This document shows, in pieces, positions 29,948 through 30,665 of a DNA stretch of 64,000 nt (positions within the stretch are counted from its first letter, which is position 1; every line of letters begins with the position of its first letter). Source of the DNA: Escherichia coli. GTDB taxonomy: Bacteria > Pseudomonadota > Gammaproteobacteria > Enterobacterales > Enterobacteriaceae. Location of the stretch: NCBI RefSeq assembly GCF_002854065.1, contig NZ_CP024147.1. One strand, given 5' to 3'. The position numbers and the translations under genes are program-made. The notes beneath the pieces were generated by a model. That model was not told the DNA's origin. It worked only from the letters and a program-made list of their open reading frames with translations, and made no database searches.

Positions 29948-30337
29948 ATGAAAAAGCTGCAAATTGCGGTAGGTATTATTCGCAACGAGAACAATGAAAT
30001 CTTTATAACGCGTCGCGCAGCAGATGCGCACATGGCGAATAAACTGGAGTTTCCCGGCGGTAAAGTTGAAATGGGTGAAACGCCGGAACAGGCGGTGGTG
30101 CGTGAACTTCAGGAAGAAGTCGGGATTACCCCACAACATTTTTCGCTATTTGAAAAACTGGAATATGAATTCCCGGACAGGCATATAACTCTGTGGTTCT
30201 GGCTGGTCGAAAGCTGGGAAGGGGAGCCGTGGGGTAAAGAAGGGCAACCCGGTAAGTGGATGTCGCTGGTCGGTCTTAATGCCGATGATTTTCCGCCAGC
30301 CAATGAACCGGTAATTGCGAAGCTTAAACGTCTGTAG
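29948..30337 (+). CDS. mutT: 8-oxo-dGTP diphosphatase (Nudix)
   Basis: 129-aa ORF MKKLQIAVGIIRNENNEIFITRRAADAHMANKLEFPGGKVEMGETPEQAVVRELQEEVGI (Nudix box). Confidence 0.96.
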   Translation: MKKLQIAVGIIRNENNEIFITRRAADAHMANKLEFPGGKVEMGETPEQAVVRELQEEVGITPQHFSLFEKLEYEFPDRHITLWFWLVESWEGEPWGKEGQPGKWMSLVGLNADDFPPANEPVIAKLKRL

Positions 30338-30665
30338 GTCAGATAAGGCGTTTTCGCCGCATCCGACATTCGCACACGATGCCTGATGCGACGCTGGCGC
30401 GTCTTATCAGGCCTAAAGGGATTTCTAACTCATTGATAAATTTGTTTTTGTAGGTCGGATAAGGCGGTTACGCCGCATCCGACATTCGCACACGATGCCT
30501 GATGCGACGCTGGCGCGTCTTATCAGGCCTACGTGGATTTATAACTCATTGATAAATTTGTTTTTGTAGGTCGGATAAGGCGTTCACGCCGCATCCGACA
30601 TTTGCACAAGATGCCTGATGCGACGCTGTCCGCGTCTTATCAGGCCTACGTGCGGCATCAGACAA
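30335..30665. repeat. BIME: three tandem 116-bp units, each carrying two REP palindromes
   Basis: Units begin at 30335, 30451 and 30567 (taggtc[a/g]gataaggcg...); each contains cggataaggcg..cgccgcatccg and gcctgatgcgacgctggcgcgtcttatcaggcct separated by an attgataaatttgtttttg linker. Confidence 0.9.

Follow-up and report, generated by a model that had tools for sequence, protein, structure and literature searches.

A probable atypical BIME between mutT and yacG of Escherichia coli and its variation in unit number

Bacterial interspersed mosaic elements (BIMEs) are sorted, in the Bachellier/Gilson classification as relayed in an extract of Ton-Hoang et al. (2012; PMC3333891), according to the repetitive extragenic palindromes (REPs) that they contain: BIME-1 elements have z1 and y REPs and a long linker L with a site for integration host factor (IHF) and occur in single copy, BIME-2 elements have z2 and y REPs with a short linker and occur in tandem, and atypical BIMEs are multicopy chimeras of the two. 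The same extract states that the number of BIME copies at a particular locus differs between strains, and an extract of PMC2817692 that BIME length polymorphism is used in strain typing. Here we describe an array of REPs between the convergent mutT gene and coaE-zapD-yacG genes in a stretch of 64,000 nucleotides (nt) of Escherichia coli DNA (RefSeq assembly GCF_002854065.1, contig NZ_CP024147.1), the whole of which is called the window below. The array is very probably an atypical BIME, as indicated by its z1 and y REPs, its one long and one short linker, and its tandem copies. It forms a locus-specific tandem array in which a Y REP, 12 nt, a Z1 REP, and a 33-nt linker follow one another, and the window carries a rare three-unit allele of it.

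The array shares with described atypical BIMEs the alternation of y and z1 REPs, the pairing of a long linker with a short one, and tandem copies that are conserved within the locus and vary in number between strains; it differs in that its long linker is found essentially at one locus rather than as a dispersed motif, and otherwise in nothing essential. With BIME-1 and the RIB and RIP elements, it has in common z1 and y REPs and a long A/T-rich linker holding a match to WATCAANNNNTTR with an A-tract before it, but BIME-1 elements are single copies, whereas the window has 2.8 tandem copies and an additional short linker. The BIME-2 array REP325 (yjdM-yjdN) resembles ours in its tandem two-hairpin units at the 3' end of a transcript, although it lies between same-strand genes and the window array between convergent ones; the terminator and stabilizer role proposed for REP325 provides the best functional analogy for the array described here.

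Tandem Repeats Finder placed the array at positions 30333-30652 of the window, with a period of 116, 2.8 copies, 93% matches, 0 indels, and a score of 554, and a separate seed-and-extend repeat search returned three in-register copies at 30333, 30449, and 30565, spaced by 116 and 116 nt. Both searches thus retain the 116-bp period announced in the original prediction, whose unit starts (30335, 30451, and 30567) are in the same register and offset by 2 nt from those of the repeat search. That prediction counted three full units, each with two REPs and a linker; the REP pairs are present in all three, but the array amounts to 2.8 units, the third being without a linker. The parts follow the order Y(+), 12-nt spacer, Z(-), 33-nt linker, which is run through three times and gives the alternating REP orientation that characterizes BIMEs. 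All six REPs are extragenic, lying within the 331-bp spacer between mutT and yacG, except that the first overlaps the mutT stop codon and nothing more of the gene.

Unit 1 begins with a Y-type REP in the GTAG orientation (30334-30368, plus strand), followed by the 12-nt spacer TTCGCACACGAT (30369-30380), an inverted Z1-type REP with a CTAA end (30381-30416, minus strand), and the A/T-rich, 33-nt linker 1 (30417-30449). The middle unit (30450-30565, plus strand), which is without counterpart in K-12, consists of a Y REP (30450-30484), a spacer (30485-30496), a Z1 REP (30497-30532), and linker 2 (30533-30565). Unit 3 (30566-30649, plus strand) has a Y REP (30566-30600), a spacer (30601-30612), and a Z REP (30613-30649) of 37 nt, with one additional loop base. 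Between this last REP and the yacG stop codon lies the 19-nt tail GTGCGGCATCAGACAAATG (30650-30668), which resembles a decayed Y half-REP, 13 of its 19 positions matching when aligned by eye. The earlier statement that the last unit abuts the yacG stop is therefore approximate, since the last canonical REP ends at 30649 and the stop occupies 30669-30671, with 19 nt between them.

REPs were typed by their edit distance to the published E. coli REP consensuses, of which PMC11208160 gives three. The Y-type REPs are 4, 3, and 3 edits from the Y consensus in units 1, 2, and 3, respectively. The three inverted REPs are 1, 0, and 2 edits, in the same order, from the consensus GCCTGATGCGACGCTGGCGCGTCTTATCAGGCCTAC, which we take to be the Z1 type, and that of the middle unit is therefore identical to it; their distance of 8-9 edits from the short Z2-type consensus separates them from the Z2 REPs of BIME-2. 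The interpretation of the spacer as REP pairs forming a BIME, already made in the original prediction, is borne out, as the six REPs lie in pairs and near published consensuses (0-2 edits for the Z1 type, 3-4 for Y). All three Y REPs start with GTAG, and two of the three Z REPs end with CTAC, the first ending with CTAA. The Y REPs read GTC...GAC where the consensus has GCC...GGC, a compensatory change from C-G to T-A in the stem that keeps the pairing. A fuzzy match to the three consensuses allowing up to 6 edits found no REPs other than these six in the 64-kb window.

Comparison with K-12 locates the difference in unit number precisely. The last base of mutT is 111433 and the first of yacG 111649 in MG1655 (NC_000913.3), which leaves a spacer of 215 bp; that of the window, with 331 bp, is exactly 116 bp longer. 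The original prediction had put the reference spacer at about one unit shorter and proposed to count the units in an alignment; this was accurate, and the alignment gives MG1655 one unit fewer. The MG1655 array is unit 1 of the window followed directly by unit 3, both being identical to the two K-12 units. Indeed, deleting 30449-30564 from the window yields the MG1655 array with 0 mismatches within the array, and all seven differences in the compared stretch then lie in flanking coding sequence. Because of 41 identical flanking nt, the missing 116 bp can be written as 30450-30565 or as 30449-30564. In the mutT coding region, positions 30065-30254 show six differences from MG1655 in about 190 bp next to array units 1 and 3 that are K-12-identical, and there are hints of a recombination mosaic around the mutT-yacG locus.

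To place the allele among other strains, we searched 5,426 complete E. coli genomes with the mutT-yacG region, and in the resulting records a match of 801 bp denotes three units, of 685 or about 680 bp two, and of 565-570 bp one. A second, 45-nt query, comprising the linker and the start of the next REP and requiring roughly 85% identity at the E-value limit used, matched 1,870 of the 5,426 genomes at 1,925 places, with a median of one and a maximum of three places per genome; at this level of identity, the linker is not a dispersed motif. Two or more units with this linker are hence carried by 34.5% of the genomes and three or more by about 55 genomes (1%), and PS10-3, a known three-unit genome, showed two linker places, as expected. 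BLAST coverage is unfit for counting units, as overlapping pieces are joined and two-unit genomes also reach 100%; we therefore classed by match length two sets of rows taken at regular intervals from the ranked hits (96 rows, without the forced first and last ones). About 56% of these rows have one unit, about 36% have two (a share that includes 3-4% with a diverged linker of the FY10 type), and about 5% are interrupted. Counting the diverged linker as well, about 38% of genomes carry two or more units. The interrupted share agrees with the 285 of 5,425 genomes that gave no contiguous mutT-yacG match. The suggestion that copy number may be strain-specific holds insofar as E. coli strains have one, two, three, or more than three units, and needs refining in that other strains share the three-unit state.

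The window allele itself occurs in 23 records among the matches listed, with identities of 99.7-99.9%; in E89, one of these records, it is longer by 64 bp. One carrier, CFSAN064036, aligned over 1,001 bp with a single difference, at 30541 (A in the window, C there). Position 30541 lies in linker 2 beside the IHF consensus, and E89 also has C. No complete genome among those searched matches the window exactly, and the closest over 25 kb are CUWW06 and 100416.

Three-unit alleles are of at least two different kinds among E. coli. Between the middle unit of the window and unit 1, 7 of 116 positions differ; between it and unit 3, there are four differences in the first 64 nt and one indel. In CU42ET-1, Combat11I9, MB53, and AR_0085, three-unit alleles have different middle units, which look like the 5' part of unit 3 joined to the 3' part of unit 1; unequal crossing-over within an allele of two units would give such a product. 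Outside E. coli, the sister species Escherichia sp. E1V33 carries 4.8 copies of the 116-bp unit between mutT and yacG (3791-4342 of its locus), and its interior units have 2 differences from the middle unit of the window, the diagnostic CGTGGATTT junction being common to both. An exact-pattern scan of one genome per species, which would miss diverged copies, found the linker in no other species than E1V33, in no other genus, and at no donor locus. E89 (about 640-730 of its locus) has three units plus a 64-bp partial unit made of half a Y REP, a spacer, and a Z REP, which apparently arose by exchange between a Y REP and the homologous decayed half-REP tail.

Based on the 7/116 differences from unit 1 and the likeness to the interior units of E1V33, we suggest that the middle unit is old rather than a recent duplicate of its neighbor, that the array is older than the diversification of E. 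coli, and that units have been gained and lost repeatedly. Near-identical 116-bp units would permit this turnover, either through unequal homologous recombination or through replication slippage between them. For the K-12 allele, the 41-nt stretch that is identical across the linker-to-Y-REP junctions would suffice to derive it from the window allele, and it is most simply seen as a one-unit deletion of a window-like allele through this stretch, since the reverse route would need extra substitutions.

Units could alternatively have been copied or moved by RAYT (the transposase TnpA-REP) acting on REP pairs as mobile, REPIN-like doublets rather than by homology. According to an extract of PMC3333891, TnpA-REP can cut and recombine BIMEs in vitro, an activity put forward as an explanation for variation in copy number. 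By eye, the linker is without similarity to the flanks of the one-unit allele, suggesting that its first acquisition was not a simple local duplication. The alleles, in contrast, differ by whole 116-bp periods or by the 64-bp subperiod bounded by homologous half-REPs, and the breakpoints that we deduce fall where long stretches are identical, which is the pattern that homologous exchange or slippage should leave. The sole hint of movement is an O157:H7 strain, TR01, a singleton among the genomes searched that could be a misassembly. We therefore consider a transposase-driven origin improbable, though it is the best of the alternatives. In TR01, the dedD-cvpA spacer (1412-1530 of its locus) contains a unit of the mutT-yacG type, including the linker, inside an unrelated BIME, and the strain is without the linker at its own mutT locus. 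This ectopic case is unique among the 5,426 genomes and could reflect ectopic conversion after DNA import, or misassembly.

Slightly less probable still is a recent, strain-private tandem duplication, by which a K-12-type two-unit allele would have gained one unit in the immediate ancestor of this strain. A spacer that exceeds that of MG1655 by exactly one period, with units 1 and 3 identical to the K-12 units, is what such an event would leave, and the chimeric middle units of Combat11I9, MB53, AR_0085, and CU42ET-1 look like its outcome. The middle unit of the window, however, is no simple chimera of units 1 and 3, being 7/116 away from the former and only 2 nt from an E1V33 interior unit; the allele is shared by the 23 listed records; and a single crossover in the 41-nt stretch gives the K-12 allele, whereas the opposite change calls for additional substitutions. 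Recurrent gain and loss of old units by homologous exchange or slippage therefore accounts better for the window allele.

The three Y-Z pairs might also be read as genes for naRNA4-like nucleoid-associated RNAs that condense the chromosome together with HU, since naRNA4 was defined as a two-hairpin REP RNA from REP325 (PMC4550694) and, on the plus strand, each pair is matched by the Rfam model RF02564 (naRNA4) along its full 77 positions, with 77.8, 83.6, and 78.4 bits against a gathering score of 59.5 (the minus strand, with 51.7-54.6 bits, stays under this threshold). In effect, RF02564 describes a generic REP pair from REP325, and any such pair scores. Moreover, naRNA4 pairs Y with a Z2 hairpin, whereas the pairs of the window join Y with Z1, and a 2026 preprint, whose group shares an author with the original study, reports no measurable nucleoid compaction by REP325 and naRNA4 and places their action locally at transcript 3' ends. 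We regard a nucleoid-condensing role of the array as very unlikely. Finally, a repeat count mis-resolved in the source assembly is almost certainly not the explanation, for although short-read assemblies may miscount 116-bp tandem repeats and the window has no exact equal among complete genomes, the three-unit array recurs in the 23 listed records and in other sequence variants, and the middle unit has diagnostic substitutions of its own, which collapse or expansion would not create.

The array is also a target of insertion sequences (ISs), a role that the original prediction had listed for BIMEs and that other strains confirm at this very locus. Three interrupted alleles were opened, and they carry IS621 (two) or IS1397 (one). 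In two Shiga toxin-producing E. coli strains, 2013C-3252 (about 3300-4600 of its locus) and 2014C-3051, IS621 sits in the Z REP of a one-unit allele at ATCAGGCCT^AC, which is the published natural IS621 target (PMC11208160). In a Nissle derivative (3300-4760 of its locus), the loop of the mutT-yacG Z REP holds IS1397. This IS1397 copy has a frameshifted transposase, and TGGC is present on both sides of the insertion. The Z REPs thus serve, in these strains, as integration sites of two REP-specific insertion sequences, IS621 (IS110 family, with a bridge-RNA recombinase) and IS1397 (IS3 family). For IS621, the Z REPs of the window hold two perfect targets ATCAGGCCTAC, one of them at 30639-30649, and one 10-of-11 copy, ATCAGGCCTAA, in the Z REP of unit 1. 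Unlike the arrays of these three strains, that of the window carries no IS.

A diverged two-unit allele is found in FY10 (about 330-550 of its locus), with the different linker ACAATTTTAACATGTTGATATGTAAGGTC. The end of its first Z REP reads ATCAGTATCTAC instead of ATCAGGCCTAC, and the 8-mer CAGTATCT that it contains equals the right end of IS621, which may be an IS621 footprint or a coincidence.

The position of the array relative to its neighbors suggests how it might function. The mutT coding sequence (29948-30337, plus strand, 129 amino acids [aa]; open reading frame list, with the gene name from E. coli genome annotations) ends with a TAG at 30335-30337 inside the GTAG head of the first REP, so that the first unit overlaps the mutT stop, as had been noted from the outset. 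Convergent with it, yacG (30669-30866, minus strand, 65 aa; open reading frame list and annotations) encodes a DNA gyrase inhibitor and is the last of three minus-strand open reading frames, coaE, zapD, and yacG, whose same-strand run probably forms an operon. Five of the REP hairpins have folding energies of -18.8 to -21.4 kcal/mol with z scores of about -4.5 to -5.4, the Z REP of unit 1 being at -21.4 kcal/mol (z, -4.8), and the first Y REP is the weakest of the six at -13.1 kcal/mol (z, -1.95), with an A at 30341 that breaks one pair. The whole array is far more structured than shuffled sequence, with z scores of -6.9 (plus strand) and -9.0 (minus strand). A promoter and terminator scan of the spacer returned no terminator-like or promoter-like site, which indicates that the array is not a classical intrinsic terminator and holds no obvious hidden promoter.

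Each REP would thus fold as a stable hairpin in both transcripts. Since both transcription units end in the array and the scan gave no terminator-like site there, no obvious structures other than the six hairpins could set the 3' ends. We infer that the array may serve as a two-way 3'-end barrier that blocks exonucleases and partly terminates transcription. This proposal parallels that of a 2026 preprint, in which REPs between convergent genes are viewed as two-way partial terminators or decay blocks and correlate with higher expression of both genes. In addition, TATCAATGAGTTA in both linkers matches, on the minus strand, the IHF core WATCAANNNNTTR exactly and has an A-tract before it (30426-30438 in linker 1 and 30542-30554 in linker 2), so each linker plausibly offers an IHF site. 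At the mutT side, it is relevant that a REP within less than 16 nt of a stop codon is reported to stall ribosomes and to reduce translation (Liang 2015, cited in PMC12306157). The first REP starts 0 nt after the mutT stop, its hairpin stem beginning at 30338, the first base past the stop; this is the geometry reported to stall terminating ribosomes, which makes MutT a candidate for such attenuation. The yacG stop, 19 nt from the nearest REP, is outside this range.

Several points weigh against this functional account and against parts of the classification. The IHF consensus is short, with 5 matches in the window against 2.1 expected by chance, and the linker does not belong to a dispersed family, as it occupies a median of one place per genome, at the mutT-yacG locus in all opened records but one; it may therefore not be the canonical L motif of BIME-1. 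According to the preprint on convergent genes, a REP at a transcript end does not, across the genome, go together with a longer mRNA half-life. The weakness of the first Y hairpin, the lowest of the six, diminishes the argument for ribosome stalling in the window allele. The exonuclease barrier, termination, IHF binding, and attenuation of MutT translation are all proposed by reading the sequence and by extension from other REPs. Likewise, homologous exchange or slippage is deduced from the structures of the alleles, and a route mediated by a transposase could have operated.

Nothing in the analysis points to a difference in behavior or phenotype between three units and two. A text search of the literature for IHF together with yacG or mutT gave nothing relevant, and a search of supplements for mutT or yacG returned differential-expression tables only. 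It is very doubtful that the allelic state of the array, through unit number, the strength of the first hairpin, or the position of the mutT stop, tunes the amount of MutT (8-oxo-dGTP hydrolase) or of YacG (gyrase inhibitor); if it did, a noncoding polymorphism would add to the natural differences that E. coli lineages show in A:T-to-C:G mutation rate or in the control of supercoiling. A connection between the binding of gyrase by BIMEs and the neighboring gyrase inhibitor gene yacG was considered and dropped, adjacency being its sole evidence.

The first REP also sets the C terminus of MutT. In the window (30326-30349), MG1655, and E1V33, the reading frame ends CTG TAG, giving a protein of 129 aa ending in KRL, and in EDL933, ST131, 042, AR_0085, and FY10 it continues as GTG TAT GTC GGA followed by TAA or TAG, giving 132 aa ending in KRVYVG. 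Both stops are inside the first REP, the second 9 nt deeper.

The variation described here is copy-number variation of an ordinary, already known kind, that is, textbook BIME polymorphism. That BIMEs vary in length from one E. coli strain to another has been known since the 1990s, K-12 already has the REP cluster at mutT-yacG, and public genomes include the three-unit allele, so its significance beyond bookkeeping is small. The locus nevertheless provides a clean worked example at a single site, with one to about five copies across the genus, at least two kinds of three-unit allele, IS621 or IS1397 in all three interrupted alleles opened, and a REP that supplies the stop codon of the mutator gene mutT and thereby sets the MutT C terminus. 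In practice, the array can be used as a simple PCR length marker.

Two further observations concern the surroundings of the array. Many of the genomes closest to window positions 18001-43000 span about 27.5 kb where the window has 25 kb; in many of them, the extra segment of about 2.5 kb is annotated as a GPH:cation symporter, and the window, CUWW06, and 100416 are without it. Just upstream of mutT, positions 29864-29933 (plus strand) match the Rfam family STnc40 (RF02057, a Salmonella small RNA) with 84 bits against a gathering score of 45, and this match covers the 3' end of secA and its terminator.

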